Below the pieces are notes generated by a model that was given only the letters and a program-made list of their open reading frames with translations, was not told the origin of the DNA and did no database searches. DNA of 64,000 nt, from positions 1 through 64,000 of the IMG/VR virus record IMGVR_UViG_3300033070_001518; one strand, given 5' to 3'. This stretch comes from a virus (Duplodnaviria > Caudoviricetes). The stretch's first letter is position 1, and each line of letters starts with the position of its first letter. The position numbers were made by a program, and so were the translations under genes. Positions 2-62,895 of the stretch are shown piece after piece.

Positions 2-70
2 AAAAAAAAAATAAAAAATGAATTTCTTAAACTTAAGAGAAATAATAAAATAGACGATATATTTAGATAA
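2..70 (+). CDS. partial hypothetical protein (3' end only), C-terminal RNNKIDDIF tag
   Basis: Frame open from the window edge: KKKIKNEFLKLKRNNKIDDIFR*, with stop 68-70 just before tRNA-Leu. Confidence 0.5.
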   Translation, partial: KKKIKNEFLKLKRNNKIDDIFR

Positions 71-71
71 T

Positions 72-151
72 GCCTCGGTGGCGTAACGGTAGCCGCGCGC
101 GACTCAAAATCGCGTTCCAAAAGAGTGTGGGTTCGATTCCCACCCGAGGTA
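72..151 (+). tRNA. tRNA-Leu(CAA)
   Basis: Acceptor GCCTCGG/CCGAGGT, anticodon arm CGCGA-CTCAAAA-TCGCG, T-loop GTTCGATTC; no encoded CCA. Confidence 0.9.
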
Positions 152-154
152 CAA

Positions 155-402
155 ATGAATTCTGAGAATAAATTTAGAGTTGGTGATTATGTTCGAGAAA
201 GGAGAGTCTACTTTGATAATAATCAAAGAGATTCTAGAAGAGGGCAAATTTGTGATATAATTGAGGCAACTAAGGAAAATGGGTACAGTTGTGATGAAGT
301 TATGATAATCATGGAATAAAAGTATATTCGGATAATTTTTACGTATTTGAAATTGATAAGGAGAAATATAGAGAAAATAAGATAGATAATTTGCTGATGT
401 AA
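155..402 (+). pseudogene. small hypothetical gene split by a frameshift near 296-319
   Basis: ATG at 155 gives MNSENKF...DEV in frame 2. Frame 1 from 298 gives SYDNHGIKVYSDNFYVFEIDKEKYRENKIDNLLM*, ending in the shared C-terminal tag. Confidence 0.5.
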
Positions 403-463
403 CACAATGGTAGTGTGCTAGTTTCGTAAACTAGAAATGTGGGCTCGAATCCCGCCATTAGCT
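393..463 (+). tRNA. tRNA-Thr(CGT)
   Basis: Acceptor GCTGATG/CATTAGC, anticodon arm CTAGT-TTCGTAA-ACTAG, T arm GTGGG-CTCGAAT-CCCGC (CTC instead of TTC); no CCA. Confidence 0.85.
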
Positions 464-468
464 CAAAT

Positions 469-531
469 TCCGCGGTCGTATAATGGTTATTACACTACAT
501 TGGTAATGTAGCAAAATGAGTTCAATTCTCA
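469..531 (+). pseudogene. truncated tRNA-Thr(GGT) lacking the 3' acceptor strand
   Basis: 5' acceptor TCCGCGG, D arm GTATAATGGTTATTAC, anticodon arm CTACA-TTGGTAA-TGTAG, T arm ATGAG-TTCAATT-CTCA. The expected CCGCGGA does not follow. Confidence 0.7.
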
Positions 532-952
532 ATATAATCGATCTTCTCTTGATCCAAATATTAAGAAATGCTCACATTGTGGCAATTTTAAACCAATTAT
601 CGATTTTTATAAGAGACGTGGAGAAAGAAAGGATTACAATGCTTTTTGTAAGATATGTAATGTTAAGTATCAACGAGAAAGATTGAGAGGAATAAAAATA
701 AAAATGATTGAATATAAGGGAGGTAAATGTGATAGATGTCTTTTGAAGTTTGATCAGGATAACTATTTTTTGTTTGATTTTCACCATTTGGATCCAAGTA
801 TTAAAGATCCAAATTTTGGAAGAATAAAATTCCAAAATTGGAATAGAATAAAAGATGAGATAGATAAATGTGTGTTAGTTTGTGCTAATTGCCATAGAAT
901 TATCCACTATCTACAACGCCGTGACTTAGAGGAAAAGGATTGTCTCTCATAA
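512..952 (+). CDS. HNH endonuclease with N-terminal Zn finger; start codon missing or uncertain
   Basis: Frame open 512-952: CSHC...CKIC, then GGKCDRC, FDFHHLDP and CVLVCANCHRIIH. No in-frame ATG upstream of the Zn finger; the ORF track starts it at TTG 683. Confidence 0.75.
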   Translation, partial: QNEFNSQYNRSSLDPNIKKCSHCGNFKPIIDFYKRRGERKDYNAFCKICNVKYQRERLRGIKIKMIEYKGGKCDRCLLKFDQDNYFLFDFHHLDPSIKDPNFGRIKFQNWNRIKDEIDKCVLVCANCHRIIHYLQRRDLEEKDCLS

Positions 953-987
953 GGACGATTAAGTGAGTTCGAACCTCACACACGGTA
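918..987 (+). tRNA. tRNA-Met or Ile2 (CAT) with an atypical D arm
   Basis: Acceptor GCCGTG/CACGGT, anticodon arm TGTCT-CTCATAA-GGACG, T arm GTGAG-TTCGAAC-CTCAC. D arm is short and irregular. Confidence 0.6.
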
Positions 988-1002
988 CAAAATACTAACA
1001 AT

Positions 1003-1179
1003 ATGAAAGATAAAATTAAAGGATTTATTCTTTTAAGAGAGTATCCAAAATGTGGTAAGAAAGTAGGGGATTTTGAGCCATATACATCAGGAGAATTTCT
1101 TAAATATCCTGAAATTTGGCAACCTGTTTATAAAAAGTCTTATATTAGAGATAGAAAGGTAGATAAGATATTACAATAA
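1003..1179 (+). CDS. hypothetical protein (58 aa), C-terminal RDRKVDKIL tag
   Basis: MKDKIKGFILLREYPKCG...YIRDRKVDKILQ*, below the ORF-track size cutoff; the stop abuts tRNA-Arg. Confidence 0.7.
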   Translation: MKDKIKGFILLREYPKCGKKVGDFEPYTSGEFLKYPEIWQPVYKKSYIRDRKVDKILQ

Positions 1180-1252
1180 GCCTCTTTAGTTTAATGGAGA
1201 AAATAGGCCCGTCCTAAGGGCTCAGATGAGGGTTCGAGTCCTTCTAGAGGCA
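1180..1252 (+). tRNA. tRNA-Arg(CCT)
   Basis: Acceptor GCCTCTT/TAGAGGC, anticodon arm GGCCC-GTCCTAA-GGGCT, T arm GAGGG-TTCGAGT-CCTTC; no CCA. Confidence 0.9.
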
Positions 1253-1253
1253 C

Positions 1254-1445
1254 ATGAATGAAGAAATAGTAATTAAGAATATAGCTAGATCTATCTATAT
1301 GAATCAAACTTTTCGTGATCGTTCTTGGGACCTCACCAATTATGGTGGTTGTGAAGAAATGGCTTCAGAAATATTTGATTTGATAAAAAAAAATTTAATC
1401 CCTTACCAAAGGGAAATAAAAATAAATGAAATAAATAATGGATAA
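1254..1445 (+). CDS. hypothetical protein, C-terminal REIKINEI tag
   Basis: 63-aa ORF directly after tRNA-Arg, overlapping the next start. Confidence 0.65.
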   Translation: MNEEIVIKNIARSIYMNQTFRDRSWDLTNYGGCEEMASEIFDLIKKNLIPYQREIKINEINNG

Positions 1446-1860
1446 ACAGGAAAATCACACAATATCTGAAAAGGCACTAGAGATAGTGAATAAAAATCCA
1501 ATGTCGTTGGGTGTGTTAAAGACTATTGATGCTAAAGATAATTTTGATTTCTCTTTTTTAGAGGTTAATAGAGGAATGTGGTTACATACTTATAAATATG
1601 AAGGTGATAGTCCTCGTAGAGAAATATTTATATTCTATGATTTGACCTATGATCAATCAAAGTTAATTAGAGACAAGTTTGAGTATTCTAAGTTTATTCC
1701 TTATGAGTCTTTTTTGGATTCCAATGTTACACCCACTGCTCAGAAAAATCATAAATTACATTTGGATTTTATTGAAAATATCAGAAAGAGAAAATTAGAT
1801 CCAGTAGTAAATACCTTTTCATTCAATGAAGACCCAAAATGGGAACCGATTATAAAGTAG
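1438..1860 (+). CDS. hypothetical protein
   Basis: 140-aa ORF in a co-directional operon. Confidence 0.7.
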   Translation: MDKQENHTISEKALEIVNKNPMSLGVLKTIDAKDNFDFSFLEVNRGMWLHTYKYEGDSPRREIFIFYDLTYDQSKLIRDKFEYSKFIPYESFLDSNVTPTAQKNHKLHLDFIENIRKRKLDPVVNTFSFNEDPKWEPIIK

Positions 1861-1866
1861 AGAGAT

Positions 1867-3060
1867 ATGAAACTCAAAATATCTGATATTAAGACAACCC
1901 CTAAGAACATGGAATTTAATTTTTGTGTCTGGGGTGAACCATCCCAAAAGGTGATGGATTGGATATCTCATTGGAATTTAAAGGCTGAGAAGTCGGGTGG
2001 ATTCACAAATATTTTTATAGGTGATTCGGATATTTATAAAATGTTTGAAGAACCAAAATTGTATAGTTTTGTTGATGGATTTTCGCCCAATCTAAATAAG
2101 CATCTACACCTAGGTCATCTTTCTAACTTGATTTTTGCTAAATCAATCCAATCCTTAGGAATTGGTCAAAAGAATATTGCAATTTTGGGTGATACATTGA
2201 CAGGAAAGATTGATACAGATGATGCTTTGGATAAATTTAAATCATATTGCAAGTCATTTGGCTATAATATTGATTATACATATTTTGCATCTAAGCAAGA
2301 GTTGATTGATAGTTCAATTCTTGATTATGGGTATGGAGATTATGCTGGTACATTTACATTTGATGTTGGTGATTCAAAAATTGTTGGTATTAAATCTGAT
2401 GGATCAACATCTTATTTTTATCAAGATGTGGCACTTGCTCAAGCATTGGTGGGGTCTCCTAAATCTCCTAAACCAATTCTTTATATAACTGGATTTGAAC
2501 AAGAAAATCACTTCAAGTCTTTGAAGTTTCTATTCCCACACAATGATCACATTGGACTTGGTTTAGTTATGATTAATGGTAAGAAAATGTCTTCATCAGA
2601 AGGGAATGTTATTATGATGGAAGATATATTGAATCAAGTTGCAGATAAATTTAATGGGGATAAAAATCTAGCTTGGAATGTTATTTCCGGACATATTCTT
2701 AAATATTCACCAGAATCTGTTAAAAATATTGATCTCAAGTCAATTGGTGATGTTAAATCATCCTGGGGATTATATTTGAGCTACACACTAGCTAAGATGA
2801 AATCCGCTGGGATGTTACCAAATACTAATTCTGATTTTATTTCTAATCAGTTAAAATGGGGATATTTGCAATCTAAAACTGAAAAATCTCCACATTATCT
2901 TTTTAATTCTTTGGTTGATCACTGTAAGAAGATAAGTCAATTGTACACGAAATTGCACATAAAGGACAATATAGATAATCAAAAAATGTATCAACCTCTT
3001 TTAGATGATCTACTTTTAGGTATGACTAAACTAGGAATGTTTGATATTGATAATGTTTAA
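1867..3060 (+). CDS. argS: arginyl-tRNA synthetase, shortened form
   Basis: FSPNLNKHLHLGH (HIGH), DGSTSYFYQD, YITGFEQENHF, GKKMSSSEGNVI (KMSKS), DALR-like GLYLSYTLAKMKS. Confidence 0.85.
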   Translation: MKLKISDIKTTPKNMEFNFCVWGEPSQKVMDWISHWNLKAEKSGGFTNIFIGDSDIYKMFEEPKLYSFVDGFSPNLNKHLHLGHLSNLIFAKSIQSLGIGQKNIAILGDTLTGKIDTDDALDKFKSYCKSFGYNIDYTYFASKQELIDSSILDYGYGDYAGTFTFDVGDSKIVGIKSDGSTSYFYQDVALAQALVGSPKSPKPILYITGFEQENHFKSLKFLFPHNDHIGLGLVMINGKKMSSSEGNVIMMEDILNQVADKFNGDKNLAWNVISGHILKYSPESVKNIDLKSIGDVKSSWGLYLSYTLAKMKSAGMLPNTNSDFISNQLKWGYLQSKTEKSPHYLFNSLVDHCKKISQLYTKLHIKDNIDNQKMYQPLLDDLLLGMTKLGMFDIDNV

Positions 3061-3452
3061 ACCCATCTCCCTGTCCAATTATATCTAACTCCTAGATAAT
3101 TTAGTAATATTATTCCCCAACCAATTATTAGCGGTCCAAATTTCCAATTGCCCTCTATGGTGAATGATGAGAATATCATAGCTATTGCCATTCCTAGAGA
3201 GAATAGAATAGGCCAAGCTCTATTTTTTCCGATTTTTAGTCCATTTGTGGTTGGGTCTGTGTACCATAGAAATTCTTTGAATGTTATTTTTCTTACTTTG
3301 GATTCAGCACATTCAACGAGGTTTGTAAAGTTATAGAATTTTATCCAACATGAATCCACGCCACTGTTGTGATCAACAACTCCAACTTTTGAGTATCCCT
3401 CGGTTTTTACTAACTCACCGGGATTAAATTTTGCAATTCTGCTTAAATTCAT
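3057..3452 (-). CDS. hypothetical membrane protein with two C-terminal hydrophobic segments
   Basis: WPILFSLGMAIAMIFSSF and FGPLIIGWGIILLNYLGV. Confidence 0.7.
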   Translation of the reverse strand: MNLSRIAKFNPGELVKTEGYSKVGVVDHNSGVDSCWIKFYNFTNLVECAESKVRKITFKEFLWYTDPTTNGLKIGKNRAWPILFSLGMAIAMIFSSFTIEGNWKFGPLIIGWGIILLNYLGVRYNWTGRWV

Positions 3453-3481
3453 AGTTTTATTTTTCTTTTATATATATTTTA

Positions 3482-3493
3482 TTTGTATATTCG
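3482..3493 (+). promoter_or_regulatory. Bacteroidota-type -7 promoter element (TAnnTTYG)
   Basis: TTTGTATATTCG 4 nt before ATG 3498; the near-identical TTTGTATATTTG occurs at 14126 (-) and 57470 (+). Confidence 0.5.
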
Positions 3494-3497
3494 TACT

Positions 3498-3908
3498 ATG
3501 TTCAAAAGGAAGTTTTTGGATTTGGCTGCTACTCTTTCACTTTCTTCGGATAAGCAAGAGAGGATCGGTGCTGTTATCACAGATCGTAATAGACTTGTTT
3601 CTTGGGGGATTTCTCTTAAGAAAACTCACCCAGTGCAAGAAAAATATAATAGAATCAGATTTGCTGATAACGCTGGTGAGCCAGGAATCGATATTGCTCA
3701 TATTCATGCTGAGATTGATGCTCTCAATAGATCCAAGTCCAAGAATTTGAAGGGACACACTATTTATATTTATAGGGAAAGTATGGGTGGAGATCTTCGT
3801 ATGTGCCGACCTTGTAAGGGTTGTATGCAGGCTCTTATTGACCGCGGAATTAAGAAAATGGTATACACCACTCCAAACGGAGTCGCGGTGGAGAAGATCA
3901 TTTCTTAA
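3498..3908 (+). CDS. cytidine/deoxycytidylate deaminase-fold protein
   Basis: HAEIDAL and RPCKGC zinc-binding motifs; ATG 3498 preferred over TTG 3483. Confidence 0.8.
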   Translation: MFKRKFLDLAATLSLSSDKQERIGAVITDRNRLVSWGISLKKTHPVQEKYNRIRFADNAGEPGIDIAHIHAEIDALNRSKSKNLKGHTIYIYRESMGGDLRMCRPCKGCMQALIDRGIKKMVYTTPNGVAVEKIIS

Positions 3909-3983
3909 TTAACTTGGATCATTGTGATATTATGAATATCTAAGTATTTTTTCATGTGCAGTGAAAAAGTGCCTCAAAAAATT

Positions 3984-3991
3984 TATATATA
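3984..3991 (+). promoter_or_regulatory. putative late promoter octamer
   Basis: TATATATA 5 nt before ATG 3997. Confidence 0.65.
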
Positions 3992-3996
3992 ATCAT

Positions 3997-6121: not shown

Positions 6122-6556
6122 CTATTTTTTGTTATCTTCTACAGATTTGGATTTCAATCTTGATGACCTCCTTGAATGTTGGATCCGCCTATCTTCTTGA
6201 ATAATTGGTTCTTGGCATTTTTCATATGTAAAATCCATATAGAATTCGAATTGGGCCATTGATGGTGGGGGCAATGGCTTTATGGAAATTAAATCTCTTG
6301 AAACTAAACCTGATGCTGATGAGTAATCTGGGTGATCTTGAATTTTTGTTTCCTTGAAATCAACATCTTCAACAATTGATTTAATTTTATTATCTCTATT
6401 TATCAACTTGATCTCTGATTCGATTTCTTCCATTTTTTCTTTATTTCCTAGTGTAATACTCCTAATCAATGGGAGACCAATAGAATTAAATTGGGATTGA
6501 GTTCCTGATAAAGATATTTGATCTTTGTAGAATTTTTCGTATTCGTCAATATTCAT
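6122..6556 (-). CDS. hypothetical protein
   Basis: 144-aa ORF carrying an internal RDNKIKSIV copy of the shared tag. Confidence 0.65.
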   Translation of the reverse strand: MNIDEYEKFYKDQISLSGTQSQFNSIGLPLIRSITLGNKEKMEEIESEIKLINRDNKIKSIVEDVDFKETKIQDHPDYSSASGLVSRDLISIKPLPPPSMAQFEFYMDFTYEKCQEPIIQEDRRIQHSRRSSRLKSKSVEDNKK

Positions 6557-37178: not shown

Positions 37179-37864
37179 GACCTCATTTCATTTTCATTTT
37201 TTAGAACTTGTACTATTCTTGGTATCCACGATTTGACAGTTGTGCAGTATGGTGATTGTTTATTGTAACAATATTCGGGGGTTAGTACTTTTGTAGAATA
37301 TAGTATAAAAAATTTATTAGAATGACTCTCGTCATGCCATTTGGCTATCAATCCCCTTGAATAATCTATATCAATTTGATTTGCTATGAATTGAAACATA
37401 TTCAACATACATCCCTTTGATCCCCCAAAAAATGCCCCAGCCATGTATTGAAAATTAATTTTATCTGATATAAATGCCAAAGACTTTGGATTATTTTCAG
37501 GTGTTCCTCTGTTACCAACGAACCACGGATGGACTACACATGTTATATCACTGAATATCTCATCATTAACAACATTTTCGAATATCATGTCACTATCTAC
37601 ATAATAGATGTAATCAAAACTATCTAGCTTACTAGAATTGTCTGTGAAATGTTTATATCTTAAAAGAGTTGGATATGGCCATGGCTTATGTTCTATTATA
37701 ATTTGATTAATCACCCTAGACGATTCTAGGGTGATTAATTCATCTGTGAATATGAAGTATTCCACTTCATGATTCTTTAGAAAAAATCGATCAGAGGTTT
37801 TTATTAAATCATTGACATATATTTTATACTTGCCAGTGGATACTATTAATAGTGCAATTTTCAC
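37175..37864 (-). CDS. GT6 (ABO/alpha-1,3-Gal(NAc) transferase-like)
   Basis: IVSTGKY, YVDSDM, GAFFGG, WHDESH. Confidence 0.88.
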   Translation of the reverse strand: MKIALLIVSTGKYKIYVNDLIKTSDRFFLKNHEVEYFIFTDELITLESSRVINQIIIEHKPWPYPTLLRYKHFTDNSSKLDSFDYIYYVDSDMIFENVVNDEIFSDITCVVHPWFVGNRGTPENNPKSLAFISDKINFQYMAGAFFGGSKGCMLNMFQFIANQIDIDYSRGLIAKWHDESHSNKFFILYSTKVLTPEYCYNKQSPYCTTVKSWIPRIVQVLKNENEMRS

Positions 37865-39966
37865 TTTTCGGTTTTTTTCCTTTTTTTCTTATCAGATATT
37901 TCCGTTTTGTCAATCTCGGGGTTATATGATAGAATTAGAACAGATCCAGATTTTGGAGATTGTTCAATTACATAGTCAGTTATTGGATCATCTATCCATC
38001 TTTGAATAGCTCTTTTTAGAGGCCTAGCTCCATATGTTGGGTCATATCCAACTTTGATCAAATGGTCTTTTAGACTTTCCTCAATAGTTATAGTAAATCC
38101 AATATTTTTGGCTCTTGCAAATGTTTTTACTAGTTCTAGGTCCACAATTTTCATTATCTCATCTTTTCCTAGATCCTTGAAATATATTATACCATCAAGT
38201 CTATTTATGAATTCTGGTGCAAACTTTTTCTTTAATTCTTTTTCGAGGGTAGATTTGATATTGATATCATGCGACTCTAATTTTGCATTTGTGCTAAATC
38301 CGACTCCAGCTCCGAAATCTTTTGCTATTCTAGTTCCAACATTGGATGTCATTAAAATAACACAATTTTTGAAGCTTATTTTTCTTCCGTGTGAATCTGA
38401 CATATACCCATCATCTAACATTTGTAAAAATAGATTTAGAACATCAGGATGGGCTTTTTCGACCTCATCAAAGAGAACAACTGAATATGGCTTTCTTCGA
38501 ATTCTATCTAGAACATTTGAATCTTCGTATCCGATATATCCCTGTGGAGATCCAATTATTTTATTAACAGAAAATTTTTCCATATATTCTGACATATCAA
38601 TTCTTATTAATGCATCATCGGAATCAAATAGATACTTGGCCAATTGCTTAGCTAGTTCAGTTTTTCCTACTCCAGAATTTCCTATTAGGATTCCCGAGTA
38701 TACTGGTTTATTCTCATCTTTCATTCCAACTCTTCCTCTCTGAATAGCTCTAACGACTTCCTTGACAGCGTCATCTTGGCCAACTACTCTTCCGGAAACA
38801 ACTTCATACATTTTTGATAGCTTTTGATTTTCAGTCTCACTTACCTTGGATAGGGGTATTCCTGTCATCATTGAAACAACTTCAGCAACATTTTCTTCAT
38901 TTACAGGTTGTCTATTTTCTTTTGATTCTTCTTCCCATTTCTGTCTAGCATCTTCTAATAGTTTATTGAGTTTTCTTTCAACATCCCTTAGTTTTGCCGC
39001 CTCTTCATATTTTTGGGCTTTTACTATCTCAGCTTTCTTTTCTTTTATTTCTTGTATTTCCTTCTCAACATCAAGAATTTCTTTGGGGACTTGTATATTT
39101 GAAATGTGGACTCTAGATCCAGCTTCATCTAGGGCATCTAGAGCTTTGTCTGGTAAAAATCTATCCGTTATGTATCTAGAAGTTAATTCCACACAAGCCT
39201 TAATAGCTTCTGGTGTGTAATTGACGCTATGGTGTGCCTCGTATTTGTCTTTAACATTATTAAGAATTTCCAAAGTCTCTTCTTCTGAAGCAGGTTCGAC
39301 CATTACTTTTTGAAATCTTCTTTCTAAAGCACCATCCTTTTCAATATATCGACGATATTCATCTATGGTTGTTGCTCCGATGATTTGAAGCTCCCCTCTT
39401 GCTAGGGCTGGTTTGAATATATTTGACGCATCAAGTGTTCCCGATGCTCCACCAGCTCCTATAATAGTGTGAATTTCATCAATAAACAATATTACGTCTC
39501 CATTTTTCTCCAATTCAGCCATAAGTGCTTTGATCCTCTCTTCGAATTGGCCTCTGTATTTAGTACCTGCGACCATTGAAGCTAAATCTAACATTACAAT
39601 TCTTTTATTAAAAAGAATTCGTGAGCATTTTCTTTGATTTATTTTAATTGCTAGTCCTTCAGCAATTGCTGATTTACCAACACCTGGTTCACCTATTAAG
39701 ATAGGGGAATTTTTTTTTCTTCTCGCTAGAATTTGAGAAACTCTTTCTATTTCTTTACCCCTTCCGACAATTGGATCTAGCTTACCCTCTTCAGCGAATC
39801 TTGTTAGATCTCGGCTATATGTGTCTAGAACAGGTGTTTTTGAAGATTGATTACTTGGCTTCTTTGTTTTTCCAAAATCATCATCCTCACCTTCATCATC
39901 AACGGAATTTTTAACTTCTTGGCTCTTTTTGATGTAATCTATTTTCATGTTTTGTATTTTTTCCAT
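37861..39966 (-). CDS. clpC: ClpC-type AAA+ unfoldase lacking the N-terminal Clp-repeat domain
   Basis: Walker A GEPGVGKS and GNSGVGKT, Walker B FIDEIH and LFDEVEKAH, UVR-like AQKYEEAAKLRD, VGF loop. Confidence 0.92.
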   Translation of the reverse strand: MEKIQNMKIDYIKKSQEVKNSVDDEGEDDDFGKTKKPSNQSSKTPVLDTYSRDLTRFAEEGKLDPIVGRGKEIERVSQILARRKKNSPILIGEPGVGKSAIAEGLAIKINQRKCSRILFNKRIVMLDLASMVAGTKYRGQFEERIKALMAELEKNGDVILFIDEIHTIIGAGGASGTLDASNIFKPALARGELQIIGATTIDEYRRYIEKDGALERRFQKVMVEPASEEETLEILNNVKDKYEAHHSVNYTPEAIKACVELTSRYITDRFLPDKALDALDEAGSRVHISNIQVPKEILDVEKEIQEIKEKKAEIVKAQKYEEAAKLRDVERKLNKLLEDARQKWEEESKENRQPVNEENVAEVVSMMTGIPLSKVSETENQKLSKMYEVVSGRVVGQDDAVKEVVRAIQRGRVGMKDENKPVYSGILIGNSGVGKTELAKQLAKYLFDSDDALIRIDMSEYMEKFSVNKIIGSPQGYIGYEDSNVLDRIRRKPYSVVLFDEVEKAHPDVLNLFLQMLDDGYMSDSHGRKISFKNCVILMTSNVGTRIAKDFGAGVGFSTNAKLESHDINIKSTLEKELKKKFAPEFINRLDGIIYFKDLGKDEIMKIVDLELVKTFARAKNIGFTITIEESLKDHLIKVGYDPTYGARPLKRAIQRWIDDPITDYVIEQSPKSGSVLILSYNPEIDKTEISDKKKRKKTEK

Positions 39967-39995: not shown

Positions 39996-40355
39996 TTAGT
40001 CTAGTAGTTTATTTAGTACTATATCTCTTCTTTCTTGGAGGCTAATTTCTTGATAAAGATCACAAGAGAATGATAGCTTGATCTCAGTGTCGGACATATC
40101 TATCATTTTTATAAAACATCCAATTGCTTTATATCTTGAAGTGAATAAGTCAATTTTATATGATGATGTGAATGTATTTTTAGAACTTATCAAAGATTGA
40201 TTGTCCCATAAATCAACAAAAAATTTTTTATAGTTATTATTTGATATAATATCAAATGTGAATGATATGGATGTGGTGATTTGTGTACCCATATTATCAT
40301 ATTGAATCTGCTCATTTTTAAAAACAAATACTCTATCTTTAATTTTAACTAACAT
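39996..40355 (-). CDS. hypothetical protein, C-terminal RDIVLNKLL tag
   Basis: 119-aa ORF upstream of clpC. Confidence 0.65.
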   Translation of the reverse strand: MLVKIKDRVFVFKNEQIQYDNMGTQITTSISFTFDIISNNNYKKFFVDLWDNQSLISSKNTFTSSYKIDLFTSRYKAIGCFIKMIDMSDTEIKLSFSCDLYQEISLQERRDIVLNKLLD

Positions 40356-46260: not shown

Positions 46261-47356
46261 AGAAATTTAGATTATTTTTTATCCTAGATATATAGAAATC
46301 CGGCATTTTGTTTTCGGATAAGAGTCTTAGGCATATTTCTCTAGACTCTTCGCCGTGCCCGCTGTAAAAGGAACAAACAGAGAATTCATCTAAGATTCCA
46401 TAGTCATAAATCCATTTTTCGATAAACAATCCATCCATATGCGGATTTAATTTATTCAGAGCTATTTTACCAACCATATACCCTTGTTGATTCCATCCAT
46501 GTAACCTACATATTTGCATTATCCAATATAATGGCTCAACCCTATGTGGTGAATGCTCAAATGATTTATAGAAATCTTGTAAAACTTCCTCTTTTGGTGT
46601 AGAGGATTCGTTTTTTATTTTAGCTATGTTATATAGGCTAACAAATTCTTCTTCTCTCCAGAATCCTTGAGATGATCTAATTTTATAATTTTTTATTGCC
46701 AAATCTATTTCACCACAATCTCGATAGCTTTGAGCTAGATAAAAAGTATATCTAGACCTCATGTACTCATTTAATTCTGGATCTAGTAAGGCATTTTCTA
46801 ATAGAGATGCATCCTTTCTATACTTTTCTGGTCCACTTTTGTTTCTTTCCGAGTCTTGAAGTGGGTGGTTTTTAAATCCAGTGGCTAATCCAGAGGTTCC
46901 TTCCATGGCTAAAAATTCATGAACAACTCCCTCATACCTCAGGTCTTTTTTATTGGAAGTTATTTGTGGTCTTGGATATATTATTCCACCTAATATTGTG
47001 GAAACATTATAAATGTCATGTACTAAATTTGATTTGAATTCTATTGGATCGAATCCATCATCGAAGATTAGAATTTCATCAGCATCGATCATTAAAGCAT
47101 AATCGATGTGATCTACTTTTCTTAGTTTAGATAATGCTATTGTTCTATTATGAGAAAAATCAACCCATTCATTTTGAATTACTTCACCGGGAATGTTATT
47201 ATTACTTATCCAATTTCTAACTATATCTTGCGTTCCGTCAGTTGATCCTGTATCAGATACTAAAACGTAATCAATTAGTATTTTGACTGAGTTTAGACAT
47301 CTAAGTATTACGTGTGATTCATTTTTAACAATTAGACATAATCCGATTCTCTTCAT
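46253..47356 (-). CDS. GT2 glycosyltransferase with a TPR-like C-terminal region
   Basis: [28 protein letters not shown]; helical [11 protein letters not shown]...AIKNY. Confidence 0.82.
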
Positions 47357-48396
47357 TTAAAATTGTCCTGATTCCTGAGATTTATTAGCAAATCTCTTTG
47401 ATCTTTGGATATATTTTTTGGTATCCTAATGGATATTCGTATATACATATCTCCCAAATGCCAATTATGTATAGGGACTCCCTTGCCCGATATTTTAATT
47501 GACTTACCATGTGTGGTTCCTGGGCTAATCGTGAAGGACACATCTCCATGTGGTGTTTTTATTTTAAAATCTCTACCTAATATTGCATCAATCACTGATA
47601 TTTCTTGTTCATATATTAGATTATTATCTTCTCGTTTGAAATTTGGATCGGGAATTTCCTCAACAAATATTTGAAGATCTCCAAAATCACCACCTTTTAT
47701 CCAACTTCCATAGGATGGCATAGACATATGAGTACCCTCAACAGCTCCCTTTGGTATCTGAATTTCTATTACTTCTTGCTTTGGTGATGTTCCCATACCA
47801 TGACATGACTTACATGGTTCCCTAGACACTTTCCCCTCTCCACTACACATTGTACAGACAACAGTTTGTCTTACTGTCCCAAATGGGGTTTGTTGTACCA
47901 TGGATCGATGTCCAGATCCATTACAAGGACCGCAAGTACTCATGTCTTTTCCGCCCCTCCCATCACATGTTTTACACTTATCTTGGCGTGTGAATTTTAT
48001 CTTCTTATTTGTTCCAGAGATTATCTCATTGATTGTTAAATCAACTTTTACCCTCAAATCTGGACCCTTTCTGCTTCTAGATCTTCCAGAAAATCCACCA
48101 CCGAAAATATCCCCAAATTGAGAGAATATGTCCTCCATATTGAATCCATGTCCCCTCCCACCACCAAAAGGATTGTTACCGCTGGATGATCCAAATCGAT
48201 CGTATTGTTGTTTCTTTTCGGGGTCTGATAGGATTTCAAATGCCTCTGCACATTCTTTGAATTTATCTTCGGATTGTTTATCGTCTGGATTTTTATCCGG
48301 GTGATATTTCATTGCGAGTTTTCTGTATGATTTTTTAATTTCATCTAATGAAGCTGATCTATCAACTTCCAATATTTTATAATAGTCTTTATTCAT
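47353..48396 (-). CDS. dnaJ: DnaJ chaperone
   Basis: J domain with HPD, G/F region, four CxxCxGxG repeats, C-terminal GDLQI/GDMYI. Confidence 0.95.
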
Positions 48397-48952
48397 GTAT
48401 ACCTAATCCGTTTTTAATTTTTAATTCTCTCAATTTTGATTTAATATTAGTGAATTCTTTAACTTCAGAAACCTTCAATGAGATAAAATCATCACATATT
48501 ATTGAAAGTAATGTTGGGTATTTATCAACATTTTCAAAATTGTCAAGAATAGAGATATTAGATTTTAATTTTTTTTTCAAGAAAATTAAACATTCCTCTA
48601 TGTCAAAGGTCAATTTAAATGCTTCTAGTCTTTCATCCTTGAAGATAGTTGGTGGCTTGATGAAATATTGATAATAAACTCTACGTATATATGGCAGAAC
48701 AAAGGATAAAGTATTTTCTGAATATTTATGTCCTTTTTCTTTTGGTAGATCCATTAAAAAAAATTCTTCATTAAATATTTCAGAATATTTCATAGCAGAT
48801 TTACAAATTGTGGTAAATTTATCACCATCTGATTTATCCATTCCATTTGATAGTAAATTGTAGTAGATATCACTATCGTAATCCATTAGAGATGTCTTTT
48901 TTGGTCTATCACTTGAATATATCAATTCTAGAACTTCTCTACGATCCTTCAT
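48389..48952 (-). CDS. hypothetical protein, C-terminal RELKIKNGL tag
   Basis: 187-aa ORF between grpE and dnaJ. Confidence 0.65.
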
Positions 48953-51217: not shown

Positions 51218-53077
51218 TTACTTTACCTCTTCATAATTAACATCTTGTGGTTGATCACTATTATCTGTAGGTGTAGATTGTTGATATAGATTGGTGCTTA
51301 TTCTAGCCCAGGTATCATTCAATTTAGTCATAGATACTTCCAACTCATCCATATTTTGTGATGAGTGTGCTGATTTTAGACTATCGACTGATGATTTTAG
51401 ATCAGATTTATCTTGATCAGATAGTTTATCATCAAATTCTTTAATTTGTTTTTCTGTTTGGAAAATTAAAGCATCTGCTTGATTCAATTTATCAATTTTC
51501 TCTCTCTCTATTTTATCAGATTCTGCGTTATCTTCGGCTTCTTTTTTCATTCTTTCAATTTCCTCTTTTGATAATTGTGATCCTCCTTCAATACGAATTT
51601 TATTCTCCTTTCCAGTTGATTTATCCTTCGCGTGAACTGATAGAACCCCATTTACGTCGATATCCAACGAAACTTCGATCTGTGGAATTCCCCTAGGGGC
51701 TGGCATTATACCATCTAGATGAAACCTTCCTAAGCTTCTATTATCTCTAGCCATTGGCCTTTCTCCTTGCAGGACATGGATTTCAACAGATGGTTGACTG
51801 TCCGATGCTGTTGAGAATGTTTCTGATTTTTTTGTTGGTATTGTTGTATTTGCATCTATTAGTTTTGTGAAAACTCCACCCATAGTTTCAATTCCAAGAC
51901 TTAGGGGAGTAACATCTAGTAGAAGAACATCACTTATTCCTCCGGTCAAGACAGCTCCTTGAATTGCTGCTCCTATCGCAACAACTTCATCTGGGTTAAC
52001 GGATTTATTTGGTTTTTTACCAAACATTTTCTCGATAGCATCTTGTAGGGATGGGATTCTAGTGGATCCGCCGACAAGTATTAGTTCATCAATATCACTT
52101 TCGTTTAGATTTGATTTTTTTAAAGCAGTTTTTGCACAGTTTATAGCTCTGTCAACTAGTTTGTGGGTCATTTGATCAAATTTAGCCCTTGTCAATTTCT
52201 TAACAAAGTGTAATGGGACATTATCCTTTACTGTAATATATGGTAAATTTATATCACTCTCTGTTGTTGAGCTTAATTCAATTTTTGCTTTTTCAGCGGC
52301 GTCTTTTAGTCTTTGGAGAGCCATCGCATCTTTGGATAGATCCATATTGTGTTCAGATTTGAAATCTGAAATCATCCAATTGATTATCTCATTATCAAAA
52401 TCATCACCTCCTAAGTGAACATCACCATCAGTAGATTTTACTTCAAAAACACCATCTCCCATCTCTAATACCGATACATCATGAGTGCCACCACCAGTAT
52501 CGAAAACTAATATTTTTGAATCTGTATTTTTCTTATCCAATCCATATGCTAAAGCTGCTGCGGTTGGTTCATTTATAATTCTCTCAACCTTTAGTCCCGC
52601 GATTTGACCAGCTTCAATTGTGGCAGTCCTTTCAGCATCTCCAAAATATGCCGGAACTGTGATGACAGCCCTTGTAACCTCATATCCCAAATAATCCTCT
52701 GCTGTCTTTTTCATTTTTTGAAGAATCATTGCAGATATTTCTTGTGGAGTATAAATCTTTCCATCAATATCAACTCCCGGAACATTTGATCCGGTTTTAA
52801 CAACCTTGTAGGGGACTAATTTTGCATCGGATGTGCAGTTAGAGTAGTCCTTTCCAATAAATCTTTTAATTGAAAATACTGTCTTTGTTGGATTTGTTAC
52901 TGCTTGTCTTTTTGCTGGGTCACCAACTCTTCTATCCGAATCAGTAAATCCAACTATCGATGGTGTGGTTCTTTTACCCTCGCTATTTGTAATAACTATT
53001 GGCTCTCCCCCCTCAACGATAGCAACACAAGAATTTGTTGTTCCAAGATCTATCCCTATAATTACGTCTTTTTTCAT
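51218..53077 (-). CDS. dnaK: DnaK (Hsp70)
   Basis: [43 protein letters not shown], tail VNYEEVK. Confidence 0.97.
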
Positions 53078-57498: not shown

Positions 57499-57684
57499 AT
57501 GATCAAAATGGATGTTAAAAAGTTCTCTAAAATTAAAGAAGAGCTTAAAAAATTTAGAAAATCAATCTTCGGTAAAAAAGATAAATTGAACATATGTAGA
57601 AAATATAATGTGACTTCGGATGAGGTCAACATTGTAATTAAATATTTAGCTTATGAGCGAAAAAAAGAAAGAACACAACAGTAA
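57499..57684 (+). CDS. small basic hypothetical protein
   Basis: 61 aa, Lys-rich. Confidence 0.55.
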   Translation: MIKMDVKKFSKIKEELKKFRKSIFGKKDKLNICRKYNVTSDEVNIVIKYLAYERKKERTQQ

Positions 57685-57904
57685 TCGTTACTATTTTAAT
57701 CTCTGTAGAAATTGTATAGATCTCTTTGGTAAAAAAAGATTAGAAGATTCATTTGGTTATAAAATAGAATTAATTTACTATATGTTTGATATGGAGTGCT
57801 CTATTTGTGAGTCATATTTTATTTGTGGAATGGGAATAGTAAAACCTCAACTAGATATTATAAATCGAGAGATAAAAATTGATTTTCTTCAAAACTCTCT
57901 TTGA
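57653..57904 (+). CDS. hypothetical Cys-containing protein, C-terminal REIKIDFL tag
   Basis: CRNC and CSIC pairs suggest a Zn ribbon. Confidence 0.6.
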   Translation: MSEKKKEHNSNRYYFNLCRNCIDLFGKKRLEDSFGYKIELIYYMFDMECSICESYFICGMGIVKPQLDIINREIKIDFLQNSL

Positions 57905-57932: not shown

Positions 57933-57937
57933 GTAAT

Positions 57938-58864: not shown

Positions 58865-58869
58865 AAAGG

Positions 58870-58877
58870 TATATATT
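58870..58877 (-). promoter_or_regulatory. putative late promoter octamer
   Basis: AATATATA 5 nt before ATG 58864. Confidence 0.65.
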
Positions 58878-58879
58878 AA

Positions 58880-59392
58880 CTAGACGATAGAATCTATCTT
58901 TCTTCCACGTATTATTCTAGGATCATTTATGAGATAATAACTAATTATCCATTGTGGTTGTAAGGTTGATAGATCCACATATTTGCAGATATAGTAGACT
59001 GCCAAGTCCTCATTTCTTTCCGTAGACAGAAAATCTATCAATTTCTCATCTGAGTCAAATTTTATTGATTTACATTCGTGTGAAATAGTTGATATTCCAT
59101 TTCCTGAAAACGATAATAATGAGAATATTCTTGAAGTAGTAACGACTCTAATATTATTTATTAAATGTGGTAATAATTTTTCAAACCAAGTTTCTGGACT
59201 TATGGAAGTTATTGTAACACCACCTGATCCATCATGTATACTATTTGAGCTTATTTCTTTACAATTTAGATAAAGTTTGATAAATGGTATAATATCGTAA
59301 TCATTAACACAGTAAATATTTCTTTGTCCTTTATCATCCTTTAACTTATATATGTCACATATGTCATTTATTTGATCTATTATACTAGGCAT
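58880..59392 (-). CDS. hypothetical protein, C-terminal RGRKIDSIV tag
   Basis: 170-aa ORF at the end of the operon. Confidence 0.65.
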   Translation of the reverse strand: MPSIIDQINDICDIYKLKDDKGQRNIYCVNDYDIIPFIKLYLNCKEISSNSIHDGSGGVTITSISPETWFEKLLPHLINNIRVVTTSRIFSLLSFSGNGISTISHECKSIKFDSDEKLIDFLSTERNEDLAVYYICKYVDLSTLQPQWIISYYLINDPRIIRGRKIDSIV

Positions 59393-59808
59393 TATTTATC
59401 TATTTTTTCTACAATTATCCCTGATAATTTTAAAAAAACAACTCCGTCTAAATCTTTGTAATCTTCTTTATAAACAACTCTAGATATTCCAGAAGATAAG
59501 ATTTCTTTTGAACAATTTTTACACGGGGAATGTGTTAGATACATTGTTGATCCATCACATGAGTGCCCCCATTTAGCACACTTTAATATTGCATTTTGCT
59601 CCGCGTGTATAACAAACCAGTGCGTTTCCCCGTCTGCGTTTTCGCAGACATTGTCCATGCCGCTCGGGGATCCATTGTACCCGTCTGATATTATCATACC
59701 ATTTTTAACAATTAAGCAACCTACTTTTTTTCTCAAACAATGAGACAATTTTGCCCAACTAGAGGCCATTTCTAAATAGATCAGATCATATTTTAATTGT
59801 TTATCCAT
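59392..59808 (-). CDS. dCMP deaminase (ComEB-like)
   Basis: KVGCLIV, GYNGSP, HAEQNAI, SPCKNC. Confidence 0.92.
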   Translation of the reverse strand: MDKQLKYDLIYLEMASSWAKLSHCLRKKVGCLIVKNGMIISDGYNGSPSGMDNVCENADGETHWFVIHAEQNAILKCAKWGHSCDGSTMYLTHSPCKNCSKEILSSGISRVVYKEDYKDLDGVVFLKLSGIIVEKIDK

Positions 59809-60568
59809 GATCTATTGACCAACTTTTTGGTAGGAATTTTGGATTTGTATTTTCGATAAAGTGAATTCTCCAATTTTTGATAAATTGATCAATACTATTG
59901 ATTTTTTCAATTACCATTTCCCCGTGAGTTTTAGTACATATAATTGGAGGAGGTGTATTTTGAGATATCCACTTTTTCTTCAATTGATTTGATATTCGTT
60001 TAACTCCCAATTCCTCTTTTATTTCTTTTCTTATTTCCTCTTTCCTCTTATCAGGAATTTCTTCCTTATCCAAACAAAGAAATAATCCTTGTATTTTTTG
60101 TAATTTTTTATTGTTGATTAGGTCTCCATTTATTGGAACATTATAGATTTCTGATAATTTTTTTTTGTATTCAAAAGCTAGTTCCTCATATGTGAAATGA
60201 CAATCTAAACATACTGTTAGGACATCATGGAATCTATGTGATTTTATTTCTTCTGAGAAGTGAATTCTATAACATCTAGGTACAACATGATGCTTTGTTA
60301 GAAATTGATTCGTTCCACAGACAACACAAATATTTTGCATTTTCTCAAGTCCATAATCCAATCCATGACATCCCAATCCATTGGGATTGAATGTCAATCT
60401 AATAGAATAATCATCTATTTTTTCAGCTAAATTTCTACTTAAATACCAATTTATTTTTTTAATATTGGATCTAAACATTAGGATGTTATCTGGTGAATAC
60501 ACACTATAGTTTCCGTAAATTTTTCTATTTTTAATAGACTCTCTCAATTTGATCATAATTAAGTTCAA
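59801..60568 (-). CDS. HNH nuclease resembling the C-terminal domain of eukaryotic EXD2
   Basis: NWYL, IRLTFNP, NICVVCG, TKHHVVP, HDVLTVCLDCH, HG...WRIHF...PKFLPKSWSIDH. Confidence 0.7.
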   Translation of the reverse strand: MNLIMIKLRESIKNRKIYGNYSVYSPDNILMFRSNIKKINWYLSRNLAEKIDDYSIRLTFNPNGLGCHGLDYGLEKMQNICVVCGTNQFLTKHHVVPRCYRIHFSEEIKSHRFHDVLTVCLDCHFTYEELAFEYKKKLSEIYNVPINGDLINNKKLQKIQGLFLCLDKEEIPDKRKEEIRKEIKEELGVKRISNQLKKKWISQNTPPPIICTKTHGEMVIEKINSIDQFIKNWRIHFIENTNPKFLPKSWSIDHG

Positions 60569-61070
60569 TATTGGTCATTCTTCCAAACACAAGAACGCCA
60601 ATTCTAACTTTTTGCTTTTCTTCTAAAATTTCTTGTACTTTACCTTTAAATGTATCAAATGGTCCATCAATTATAACAACTTCGTCGTCTACGTGGAATG
60701 TGGTTAATTTTTCCACAACTTCTCTCTTCTCATCCTCTACTTTTAGCAAATTTCTGACCTCTTCTGATTTTATTGGGTGTATATCACCTGATTTACTTCT
60801 AACAAATCCAGTGGCTCCTTGGACACTTTTTAATATGTTATTTACTTCTCCGAGGGCGGATGTTTCGATAAAAACATATCCAGGATATATAGTTCTTTCT
60901 CTAAGAAACTTTTTTCCACTTTTTGAAGAAAGCACTTTTTCGACTGGTATTATTGTTCTACCAATTAAATTTGATATACCTGCTCGATTAACCTCTAGAT
61001 TCAATTTCTCTAAAACACTTTTTTCTTTGTTATTCTGTGTTCGTATTGCGTACCATTTCATATCTGACAT
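60531..61070 (-). CDS. nusG: NusG transcription factor
   Basis: KWYAIRT, IYPGYVFIE, KOW VIIDGPFDTFKGKV, VLVFGRMTNIEL. Confidence 0.92.
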   Translation of the reverse strand: MSDMKWYAIRTQNNKEKSVLEKLNLEVNRAGISNLIGRTIIPVEKVLSSKSGKKFLRERTIYPGYVFIETSALGEVNNILKSVQGATGFVRSKSGDIHPIKSEEVRNLLKVEDEKREVVEKLTTFHVDDEVVIIDGPFDTFKGKVQEILEEKQKVRIGVLVFGRMTNIELNYDQIERVY

Positions 61071-61071
61071 T

Positions 61072-61467
61072 TTAGGTTGATTTTTTATAAAATTTTAATT
61101 CTTCTTTAATTATTTCGGGGAAGTTATTAATTAAATATATTAAATCTTCACTTTTGTTTAGATTTAATTTTAACATAAGAAGTTCAAAATCTTTATCTAG
61201 TAATTGATTTGATTCTATTTTTTTGGACTTTGACCAAAACCACTTGGGATATGGTTTATCTAACATAAAATAATACCAAAGGTCTAGACCAATAGATTTA
61301 TTTATTAATTTATTATTAATAAGTTGAGCTTCTTTTGGATATTTTTTACTCATATATCTATTAAAGATAAAGAAATATTTGTCCTTCATCTCATCCGTTA
61401 CAAGATTCCATTTCTTTTTATCTTGAAACATAATTTTTGATATTGATAAGATATTATCTTCGATCAT
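61072..61467 (-). CDS. hypothetical protein, possibly T4 gp62-like clamp-loader small subunit
   Basis: FFIFNRYMS and PKWFWSK are loosely gp62-like; sits in a replication operon. Confidence 0.35.
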   Translation of the reverse strand: MIEDNILSISKIMFQDKKKWNLVTDEMKDKYFFIFNRYMSKKYPKEAQLINNKLINKSIGLDLWYYFMLDKPYPKWFWSKSKKIESNQLLDKDFELLMLKLNLNKSEDLIYLINNFPEIIKEELKFYKKST

Positions 61468-61646
61468 AATTTTATGAATCGTTGGGTATTCTCATTTATA
61501 GTTTCATTCCATACTGAAAGAGGTCTTGCATGTACAGATCCAAAACTTAAAGATCGATAAATAACTAGAACTTCCTTGGTTTCTGTATGACTACACAGGC
61601 TTATTTTCCAAGTTTCTTTTGGTAGTGGATAATTAATCATTTTCAA
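61464..61646 (-). CDS. DUF1653-like protein lacking the HYKG segment
   Basis: HTETKEVLVIYRSL.FGS..ARP...RF. Confidence 0.55.
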   Translation of the reverse strand: MKMINYPLPKETWKISLCSHTETKEVLVIYRSLSFGSVHARPLSVWNETINENTQRFIKL

Positions 61647-61887
61647 TTTTTGTTATTTTTTCATTTCTTTGTTTTCTGACCTCTTTTATTTCCCATTCTC
61701 TTTCATAATATATCTTATTAGCTAAATCTTGAATTTTAGTCAATGCGTTATCAGGACTAATTGATCCACCATATATTCCCTTCTTTATATCATCACATCT
61801 AATTGATGTTAATATTGATAGAGCAGCGAGAAGCATTTTACCTTCATCCGAGTTAGTATCAAAATTATTGAATGTTTTTTCGATCAT
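61633..61887 (-). CDS. hypothetical protein, C-terminal RNEKITKI tag
   Basis: 84-aa ORF in the operon. Confidence 0.6.
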   Translation of the reverse strand: MIEKTFNNFDTNSDEGKMLLAALSILTSIRCDDIKKGIYGGSISPDNALTKIQDLANKIYYEREWEIKEVRKQRNEKITKIEND

Positions 61888-62615
61888 TTTAATCTCTCTT
61901 TGGTTATTCTAATTGATTTTTCGTTTATATCACAACCTATGAAATTTCTTTCCAATTCTTTGCACAGAACAGCACTAGTTCCAGATCCTAAGAAGAAATC
62001 ACCAACTAGATCATTTTTGTCTGTGGATGTCTCTATTATCCTTTTTATCAATTCTTTTGGTTTTTGTGTTGAATAACCCGTTCTTTCCTTTTTATCATTT
62101 TGTCCTAAAATGTTTATTTGCCAAACATCTCCCATTATTTTACCCCTTGGATTGTAATACTTTTCTTTTTCATATCCTCGTGGTGCTGATAATGAATATG
62201 GTTCTCTAATATTGTCTTCGTTGAATTTAAATTTATCTGTTTTTGACCATCTAAGAATTGTATCATGTCTATTACTAAAATTGCCTTTTTTTCTAGGTGA
62301 TGAGTTGTAATACCATATTATTTCATTTCTAAAGTTATTATATCCAAAAATATCATCTCCGATACATCTAATCCAATGATTTATTCTCCAATCCATTTGG
62401 AGATATACAGATCCAGTTGGTTTAAGAATTCTTTTCATTTCGGAAATTCTAGGAACGTAGAAATCATAAATTAGATTCTTTATTGGTTTTAAATCTTTAA
62501 AGTCTGGGAAATTATTTCCTGTTCCATAAAGAATATCCCCATAAATAAGATCGAGAGAATCTGTCTTGATTGTCTTCATAAATAGAAGATTATCTTCACA
62601 TTTAATTTCAAACAT
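61884..62615 (-). CDS. N6/N4 DNA methyltransferase (beta class) with a DILY variant of DPPY
   Basis: DLIYGDILYG, YLQMDWR, NEIIW, TQKPKEL, DFFLGSGTS. Confidence 0.85.
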   Translation of the reverse strand: MFEIKCEDNLLFMKTIKTDSLDLIYGDILYGTGNNFPDFKDLKPIKNLIYDFYVPRISEMKRILKPTGSVYLQMDWRINHWIRCIGDDIFGYNNFRNEIIWYYNSSPRKKGNFSNRHDTILRWSKTDKFKFNEDNIREPYSLSAPRGYEKEKYYNPRGKIMGDVWQINILGQNDKKERTGYSTQKPKELIKRIIETSTDKNDLVGDFFLGSGTSAVLCKELERNFIGCDINEKSIRITKERLK

Positions 62616-62895
62616 TGAGTAAATTTAATTTCAATTCTCTAATTATTGGTTTTAATTCTTCCATAAATTTATCCTCTAAGTGAAATTCAACTCCATATAA
62701 AGATGGATTATATACATATTGTTTTTCTCCGGTTTCAAAATTCCCACCATCTAAAATTAGTATTCCACGATTTATTAGATTTTGTGATAAATTGAATGAT
62801 ATTTCAATTTTAGGACTTCTTGACCACCAAAGCATGGAATTGCCATCAAGTATTATTAGCTCCCTTCCCCGAAAAATTTTTTCTACTATTAACAT
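62608..62895 (-). CDS. hypothetical protein, C-terminal RELKLNLL tag
   Basis: 95-aa ORF in the operon. Confidence 0.6.
   Translation of the reverse strand: MLIVEKIFRGRELIILDGNSMLWWSRSPKIEISFNLSQNLINRGILILDGGNFETGEKQYVYNPSLYGVEFHLEDKFMEELKPIIRELKLNLLNV

Follow-up and report, generated by a model that had tools for sequence, protein, structure and literature searches.

Starting from the first 64,000 nucleotides of the virus record IMGVR_UViG_3300033070_001518 (Caudoviricetes; this whole stretch is hereafter called the window), we analysed a short peptide of the form R-x-x-K-[IL]-[DN]-x-[IL], the tag, which is located at the C-terminal ends of otherwise unrelated proteins. The tag was found to end 12–17% of all proteins in a single branch among the largest bacteriophages known, which amounts to more than 100 proteins per genome, mostly of unknown function. 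It turned out to be a real, portable signal at the peptide level, which is under selection throughout this clade, and the genes carrying it are excluded from the late-type class. An earlier sequence-only reading of the window had listed ten tagged proteins; the tag described there is real, while its scale, a considerable share of the proteome in a whole clade of huge phages, was understated. As an observation the tag is well supported.

Occurrence of the tag and selection on its peptide

Megablast of the window against phage records gave no match, and single-protein searches in IMG/VR yielded just two close relatives. Employing a 905-amino-acid window protein without assigned function in tblastn searches, we obtained matches of 27–42% identity to six unannotated 'uncultured phage' records, namely LR756502.1 (642 kb), LR745206.1 (634 kb), LR756504.1 (636 kb), LR756501.1 and LR756503.1 (735 kb) and LR756500.1 (462 kb). 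Four of these sizes (634, 636, 642 and 735 kb) are also those of the largest genomes in Al-Shayeb et al. 2020 (PMC7162821), which assigns them to its 'Mahaphage' clade and predicts Bacteroidetes as hosts; from the sizes we infer that the records concerned are Mahaphage genomes, the accessions being absent from the text of that paper. A close IMG/VR relative of the window comprises 46 kb and is rated 10% complete, indicating that the 80,411-bp contig (30% G+C), of which the window represents the first 64 kb, is a fragment of a Mahaphage-type huge phage.

The tag census comprised five complete genomes, with LR756501.1 examined over 395 kb, about half of its length. Using a position matrix built from the tails of LR756502.1 and counting proteins as tagged at a score of at least 10 bits and at most 10 residues from the stop codon, we identified 140 tagged proteins among 966 in LR756502.1 (1 after shuffling) and 113 among 928 in LR745206.1 (0 after shuffling). 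On 119 of 923 proteins, LR756504.1 carries a variant, R-K-x-[KIR]-I-[EDN]-x-L-[LIN], which in most cases forms the very C-terminus (0.9 after shuffling), including subfamilies with longer common tails (T-x-x-E-[YH]-R-K...). These three genomes are the tag-bearing ones; the R-x-x-K tag was found neither in LR756500.1 by matrix scan nor in the 395 kb of LR756501.1. The consensus spans about 13 residues, [K/hydrophobic]-[S/Q]-E-[hydrophobic]-R-[D/E/N]-x-K-[I/L]-[N/D]-x-[I/L]-[L/G], followed by 0–6 residues and the stop codon. Between tag and stop codon there are 0–10 residues, most often one, and about 28 internal copies occur in LR756502.1.

A narrow DNA pattern back-translated from the tag matched IMG/VR sequences at 58 places, 37 of which are in-frame ends of open reading frames (ORFs); most of these 37 have more tagged ORFs nearby (up to 14 per 11 kb), and the contigs concerned reach 385 kb in length, with 27–31% G+C. 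With the same narrow pattern, 0 of 80 matches listed for prokaryote genomes were in-frame ORF ends, and on these grounds we rejected both prophage copies and the mimicking of a motif from the host. Neither the papers on these phages nor broader literature searches yielded an account of this motif or of a tag at proteome scale. That short common tails are read by one partner is an established principle (degrons, adaptor, clamp-binding and acidic tails, cargo peptides); this particular motif is apparently new.

In the contig of the window itself, genes were called with a codon-usage caller over all 80,411 bp, resulting in 103 complete proteins with 25,096 amino acids. The ten C-terminal peptides and two internal copies of the sequence-only reading are all present. 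Six of the ten listed ORFs (ends at 70, 402, 1445, 57904, 58880 and 62608) match the strict consensus R..K[IL][DN].[IL], the other four being looser; for two of these four, orthologues are nearer to the canonical form (RIQKIDKI for RNEKITKI and RDLKIEEI for RELKIKNG). Enrichment at C-termini relative to composition, a check which that reading had proposed, was evident: the strict pattern lies at most 8 residues from the stop codon in six called proteins, with 0.016 expected, and occurs seven times anywhere in the 103 proteins, with 0.42 expected. The mini-ORFs ending at 70 and 402 are two further strict matches besides the six called proteins, and three more tagged proteins are encoded past the window, with REIKLDQIL directly before the stop codon (77275–77598), RNWKINQI (64627–65193) and RNVLINKIL (70258–70749). 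The two internal look-alikes, RKRKLDPVV at 1783–1809 (+ strand, in the 1438–1860 protein, 17 residues before its end) and RDNKIKSIV at 6371–6397 (− strand, in the 6122–6556 protein), are indistinguishable from chance in this contig alone, where the loose pattern is expected about four times.

In 37 orthologue pairs of LR756502.1 and LR745206.1, identity amounts to 63% in the tag compared to 41% in the body, hence a short motif is conserved above its flanks, and where orthologues exist, the tail is their best-preserved part. In the same pairs, 35% of the identical tag residues are encoded by different codons, compared to 46% in the body. A tail that is kept in orthologues while its synonymous codons vary shows selection on the peptide. 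Could gene ends instead carry a signal in the DNA itself, for example a promoter, a recombination anchor or the translation-initiation region of the following gene, that merely looks like a peptide? In favour of this, the DNA of the tag is rich in A/T, tagged genes are closely spaced and K-I-D can spell AAAATTGA, but the motif is always in frame and its codons follow genome-wide synonymous usage (AGA/AGG/CGT for Arg 70/19/8% in the tag vs 72/15/7%; at least five codons each for Leu and Ile). Moreover, 45 of the 140 tagged genes of LR756502.1 lack a close co-directional gene downstream, three tags in the window stand before tRNA genes, and the tagged gene at 64627–65193 faces a convergent gene. 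Codon usage and the synonymous differences between orthologues rule out K-I-D as a AAAATTGA-type promoter and other readings at the DNA level; a nucleotide signal is thus already largely refuted, and we give it next to no credence.

The bodies to which the tag is attached are unrelated, as had been claimed for the listed proteins: BLASTP revealed no similarity among the tagged proteins of the window contig outside the tail. On removal of the tail, 139 tagged proteins of LR756502.1 still fell into 133 BLAST clusters, which speaks against full-length paralogs sharing one ordinary domain, the case that the sequence-only reading had named as its own refutation. Paralogy or an ordinary domain family was rejected accordingly, the tube-fold family of gene 39996–40355 (see below) being the exception. 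Tagged proteins of LR756502.1 are 40–622 amino acids long, and among the 100 longest only three have a Pfam match (flavokinase, BtpA and DUF6011); Pfam and PHROGs searches with tagged proteins otherwise returned nothing. Turnover is high: 93 of the 140 tagged proteins of LR756502.1 have no homologue in LR745206.1, and relatives of the window possess additional tagged genes at non-orthologous sites.

Tagged genes also differ from other genes in their class and arrangement. The late-type A/T motif AATATATA is present at most 60 nt upstream of only 2 of 140 tagged genes of LR756502.1, compared to 198 of 826 untagged genes (Fisher p = 7e-13), which bears out the claim that the tag marks non-late proteins; the window contig points in the same direction (0 of 9 tagged vs 23 of 95 untagged genes), albeit not significantly. 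The gap to the upstream gene is at most 5 nt for 74% of tagged vs 38% of other genes, reflecting tight same-strand arrays, and the density of tagged genes peaks towards either end of the records, e.g. with 35 of 56 genes at 620–640 kb of LR756502.1. Membrane-like segments and net charge do not differ between tagged and untagged small proteins. Within the densest tagged array of LR756502.1, a 111-amino-acid protein (624083–624418) with a partial match to low-molecular-weight phosphatases is unusually conserved, with 71% and 60% identity in the other two tag-bearing genomes.

Possible readers of the tag

If the tag is modelled as an alpha-helix, R0, K3, I/L4, I/L7 and L8 would share one face on geometric grounds. 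The amphipathic helix suggested by the sequence-only reading is partly supported by structure prediction: the tail is helical in the sole confident model, that of the 39996–40355 family, whereas it is a low-confidence coil in the model of the 58880–59392 family. The former protein (119 amino acids, − strand, directly upstream of the ClpC-like gene) is predicted to adopt a tail-tube/Hcp-like fold (predicted local distance difference test score, pLDDT, 87; Foldseek probability 1.0, TM 0.5–0.6) with a C-terminal helix over residues 106–118, and carries the K-less tag variant QERRDIVLNKLLD at 40002–40028. The listed peptide RDIVLNKLL thus corresponds to a K-less version of the motif in a conserved tail-tube-fold family, which comprises 41 representatives at an E-value of at most 0.001; in 34 aligned members the tag's Arg is the only invariant residue, and the consensus tail reads E-R-R-D-x-[IL]-[IL]-[DN]-x-[IL]-L. 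This protein is a special case, the K-less motif being an inherent part of one old family. For the 58880–59392 family, the AlphaFold model is weak (pLDDT 65), its tail being unpacked, and yielded no PDB match. In four genomes the tube-fold gene lies directly upstream of the Clp ATPase gene, an odd location for a protein of the tube family.

We favour the explanation that a portable C-terminal helix docks non-late proteins on one reader, preferably the phage's own Clp protease, and see about even chances for it to be correct. The tail would form a short amphipathic helix on the C-termini of unrelated, fast-evolving, non-late (early or middle) Mahaphage-type proteins, and its face of R0, K3, I/L4, I/L7 and L8 would dock all of them on the common reader, which might consist of the ClpC-type unfoldase, with a VGF loop and without an N-domain, and two phage ClpP subunits. 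The tag could then serve either as a degron for the timed removal of the early proteome or as a tether in the manner of SspB, through which tagged proteins would pass bound host proteins to the protease. The docking face, the existence of a single reader and its identity are what we infer. The candidate reader in the window (37861–39966, − strand) is a ClpC-type double-AAA+ unfoldase of 701 amino acids with a UVR motif and a GAGVGF loop for docking on ClpP; it lacks Clp_N and has a roughly 45-residue acidic N-terminal extension in its place. Among the five genomes compared, two strong ClpP genes are present only in the three tag-bearing ones, and the Clp ATPase of all tag-bearing lineages possesses the VGF loop and lacks the N-domain. 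By contrast, the Clp ATPase of tag-less LR756501.1 is ClpB-like, with N-domain and without VGF loop, and none is encoded in tag-less LR756500.1. LR756504.1, the genome with the variant tag, is also the only lineage with a Clp ATPase lacking the acidic extension. Phage Clp ATPases of the window and its relatives additionally feature a short middle domain and a basic KKKRKK tail. The N-terminus of the ClpC-like window protein contains K-I-D-Y-I, which resembles the tag but is not conserved in relatives and was dismissed.

From the partners put forward by the sequence-only reading, the ClpC-like ATPase hence remains a candidate given its VGF loop only in tag-bearing lineages, Hsp70 is weakened by its occurrence in tag-less LR756501.1, and a clamp is unlikely since the carriers are not replication proteins. 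A clamp-binding or PIP-like tail was also rejected because the tag has no Q or aromatic positions, the carriers are ORFans and SSB and FEN of the window are untagged. A capsid-targeting or cargo-loading peptide does not fit the near absence of AATATATA upstream of tagged genes, and an ssrA-type degron read at the last residues or the carboxylate does not fit the variable distance to the stop codon and the internal copies. The phospho-arginine degron of the McsB/ClpC/YwlE type was discarded as well: a McsB-type arginine kinase (PF00217) is absent from all five complete genomes, while a control genome was positive, which makes this route unlikely, and the ClpC-like protein has no Clp_N.

The tag-less genomes possess motifs of their own. 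About 70 copies of DPYGEExW were found in the 395 kb of LR756501.1, about half of them 2–3 residues before the stop codon and the others close to N-termini or internal, with as many as four in one protein; variation among their synonymous codons indicates a constraint on the peptide, and DPYGEExW is possibly the counterpart of the tag in the 735-kb phage. In LR756500.1, which lacks the R-x-x-K tag, PrkA, Hsp70 and a Clp ATPase, eight proteins end in K-Y-[EN]-H-[LI]-x-N-A-[DE]-D-F-G-x-[LI] (9–10 by a looser three-residue count), which makes this the third C-terminal motif specific to one lineage. Neither motif was found in the other genomes compared.

Several observations weigh against the Clp protease as reader. 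Its assignment is based on co-occurrence in five genomes, three with and two without the tag, and is a lead rather than a demonstration: 89 proteins occur in all three complete genomes with the tag but not in LR756500.1, and 48 of them are also unmatched in the examined part of LR756501.1, so that at least 48 other genes, including PrkA and DUF444, co-occur with the tag in the same way as Clp. ClpP and PrkA are moreover common in phages without the tag. Most of the known degrons for Clp are extended peptides that form the extreme end of the chain, whereas the tag is helical in the only confident model, lies 0–10 residues from the end and also occurs in the internal copies of LR756502.1 mentioned above. 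DPYGEExW is largely internal and its genome has no ClpP; if it does the same job as the R-x-x-K tag, this job is independent of ClpP and of a position at the very end. Finally, the reader could be a protein of the Bacteroidota host.

An address label for a place (a compartment, the virion, the membrane or a factory for replication or translation), comparable to PTS1 with PEX5, the cargo peptides of encapsulins or helices that target membranes, would account for the same portable, C-terminal and lineage-specific features as a label for a protease, and the partly internal location of the other lineages' tags (DPYGEExW and H[LI]xNADDFG) fits docking better than degradation that depends on a free end. 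However, tagged genes fall outside the late class, which counts against head loading, they do not stand out from other small proteins in membrane segments or charge, no compartment gene was identified, and a conserved face of R/K and D/N is atypical for a lipid-binding helix; we thus regard a place label as improbable, if worth keeping in mind. Rather unlikely, too, is the view that no common reader exists and that the tail is a self-contained helix which caps, dimerises or stabilises small proteins and was kept from an ancestor while the bodies diverged. The helix is indeed the most conserved part of the tube-fold family of 39996–40355, and the subfamilies with longer tails in LR756504.1 suggest local expansions of paralogues. 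Generic capping, however, requires neither an invariant Arg nor a fixed polar pattern, the tail is unpacked in the model of the 58880 family, and the unrelated bodies differ widely in length and include enzymes (flavokinase, BtpA). In LR756504.1, the consensus of the whole set shifts together, which argues for an external constraint.

The reader might also be the phage's pair of PrkA (YeaG), which is AAA+/kinase-like and linked to bulk proteolysis, and DUF444 (YeaH), its partner with a vWA domain; the tag would either direct proteins to this pair or protect them from it, but we consider this unlikely as well. Among the proteins that are present in all three tag-bearing and absent from both tag-less genomes, PrkA is the best conserved (84% and 67% identity), DUF444 adjoins it, and in LR756502.1 a tagged ORF of 40 codons (277142–277264) starts at the stop codon of DUF444. 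On the other hand, about 60 other phage contigs encode a PrkA of 60–70% identity without a tag in the surrounding 20 kb, whereas Mahaphage loci contain 1–5 tags, and PrkA was therefore dismissed as a sufficient marker; in addition, the sample consists of five genomes. PrkA homologues of 60–70% identity were found on well over 100 IMG/VR contigs of 34–60% G+C, well outside the Mahaphage group. In E. coli, YeaG drives broad proteolysis during starvation (PMC13684143), which is reported to be largely non-specific and in that respect fits poorly to a tag; given this 2026 report, phage PrkA may serve the recycling of host proteins.

Recruitment of the phage's Hsp70/DnaJ (or GroEL) to newly made phage proteins appears very unlikely. 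The window does encode Hsp70 and a full DnaJ, whose start is overlapped by a tagged gene, and the aliphatic residues of the tag are flanked by basic ones. Within a hydrophobic core, however, D or N is disfavoured in DnaK-binding sites (Ruediger-type motif), and a conserved D/N is exactly what the core of the tag contains; furthermore, Hsp70 is also present in LR756501.1, which is tag-less, as are EF-G and GluRS. Relatives of the window encode EF-G, GluRS, an M16-type peptidase and RNase R besides, and a close IMG/VR relative (G002) has GroEL/GroES-like genes, judged by their C-termini alone.

Tagged genes of the window

The window contains three tRNA genes and genes for a gp32-like single-stranded DNA-binding protein (SSB), an Rnl1-type RNA ligase, a large block for sugar modification, a NusG-like protein, the ClpC-type AAA+ protein, Hsp70, a full DnaJ and FEN. 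In positions 1–1445, four successive small tagged ORFs are interleaved with the three tRNA genes, and stop codons are located 0–2 nt before or inside tRNA genes. The first is the 3' end of a gene truncated by the start of the contig (2–70, + strand), with the tag RNNKIDDIF at 38–64 and the stop codon at 68–70, directly followed by tRNA-Leu (72–152). It is followed by a mini-ORF without an ATG, GTG or TTG start (298–402, + strand; tag RENKIDNLL at 370–396), the end of which overlaps tRNA-Thr (393–464). An ORF ending at 319 (region 125–402) overlaps this mini-ORF in another frame, and the mini-ORF may be its frameshifted continuation, the frameshift being either real or an assembly error. A protein of 58 amino acids (1003–1179, + strand) carries the tag RDRKVDKIL at 1147–1173 (18.4 bits on the tag matrix) immediately before tRNA-Arg, which begins at 1180, and a protein of 63 amino acids (1254–1445, + strand) carries REIKINEI at 1410–1433 (15.6 bits).

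The phage chaperone set comprises the full DnaJ (47353–48396, − strand), with J domain, zinc-finger domain and C-terminal domain, and the Hsp70/DnaK homologue (51218–53077, − strand). The gene overlapping the start of DnaJ (48389–48952, − strand) encodes a protein of 187 amino acids with the weak tag RELKIKNGL (48404–48430; 8.9 bits), the orthologue of which in the related contig G001 ends in RDLKIEEINE. Further downstream, REIKIDFL (57866–57889) marks an 83-amino-acid protein (57653–57904, + strand), with RELKVDLITDL at the end of its orthologue in the related contig L002, and RGRKIDSIV (58883–58909) marks a 170-amino-acid protein (58880–59392, − strand), in whose family I161, R162, K165, I166, S168 and I169 are invariant across six orthologues (down to 55% identity). 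An 84-amino-acid protein (61633–61887, − strand) has the loose tag RNEKITKI (61645–61668), while its orthologues end in RIEKINKL and RIQKIDKIEDE, and a 95-amino-acid protein (62608–62895, − strand) has RELKLNLL (62617–62640), its orthologues ending in RQIKLNSIDV, RETKLNLLNV and REIKLNSINV.

Meaning and comparison with known systems

Most genes of the largest phages cannot be annotated, and the tag unites over 100 such genes in each genome in a single non-late class with a common handle; at the same time it provides a simple sequence rule for spotting this protein class in metagenomes. The variant or different motifs of sister lineages offer a way to find the reader by co-variation. If the tag is indeed read by the phage's own protease or by another common receptor, this would constitute a built-in code for addressing or turnover of the early proteome, of a kind not yet described for phages, and the small portable peptide and its cognate reader could be used as a tool. 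In its most far-reaching form, a virus-encoded, proteome-scale addressing system would hand a fast-evolving early arsenal, by means of a lineage-specific peptide, to a phage-built AAA+ protease, either for timed self-clearance or for the destruction of bound host proteins, with tag and reader co-evolving between lineages. The peptide would be the R-x-x-K helix here, the variant in LR756504.1, possibly DPYGEExW in the 735-kb phage and H[LI]xNADDFG in LR756500.1, and the system would be the counterpart, in a bacterial virus, of F-box/ubiquitin or PROTAC-like (proteolysis-targeting chimera) targeting; we treat this picture as a speculative one that is more probably wrong than right.

Large, fast-turnover repertoires united by a short motif with lineage variants are known from oomycete RXLR, Plasmodium PEXEL, poxvirus C-terminal PRANC/F-box and PTS1-PEX5 systems, and the MIM helix of ESCRT-III is a C-terminal helix read by an AAA+ ATPase, via the MIT domain of Vps4. 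These systems all belong to eukaryotes or target their cells, and to our knowledge no such system has been reported for bacteriophages. Different phage proteins that share one short end motif are exemplified by the tails of T4 gp43, gp33 and gp55 on gp45 and by the acidic tails of T7 gp2.5 and gp4; these, however, are acidic or aromatic and restricted to a handful of DNA-handling proteins, whereas the tagged proteins are ORFans. Similarly, the C-terminal cargo peptide of encapsulins and the N-terminal capsid targeting sequence of T4 are short terminal addresses on unrelated proteins, in their case for an HK97-type shell, while tagged genes are almost never found behind AATATATA. Short C-terminal peptides on unrelated bodies also include the adaptor and degron tails of AAA+ machines (the C-terminal XB peptide of SspB on ClpX, MecA on ClpC, ssrA and the FtsH tag of lambda CII). 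There, one ATP-dependent machine reads the tail, and genes of a complete phage Clp protease co-occur with the tag here. In contrast to these tails, which it does not resemble in sequence, the tag probably forms a helix and, being located 0–10 residues from the end, would be independent of a free carboxylate. Known adaptors use the N-domain of ClpC, which the phage ClpC lacks, and the tag is attached to more than 100 proteins per genome, for which the machine would be encoded by the virus itself.

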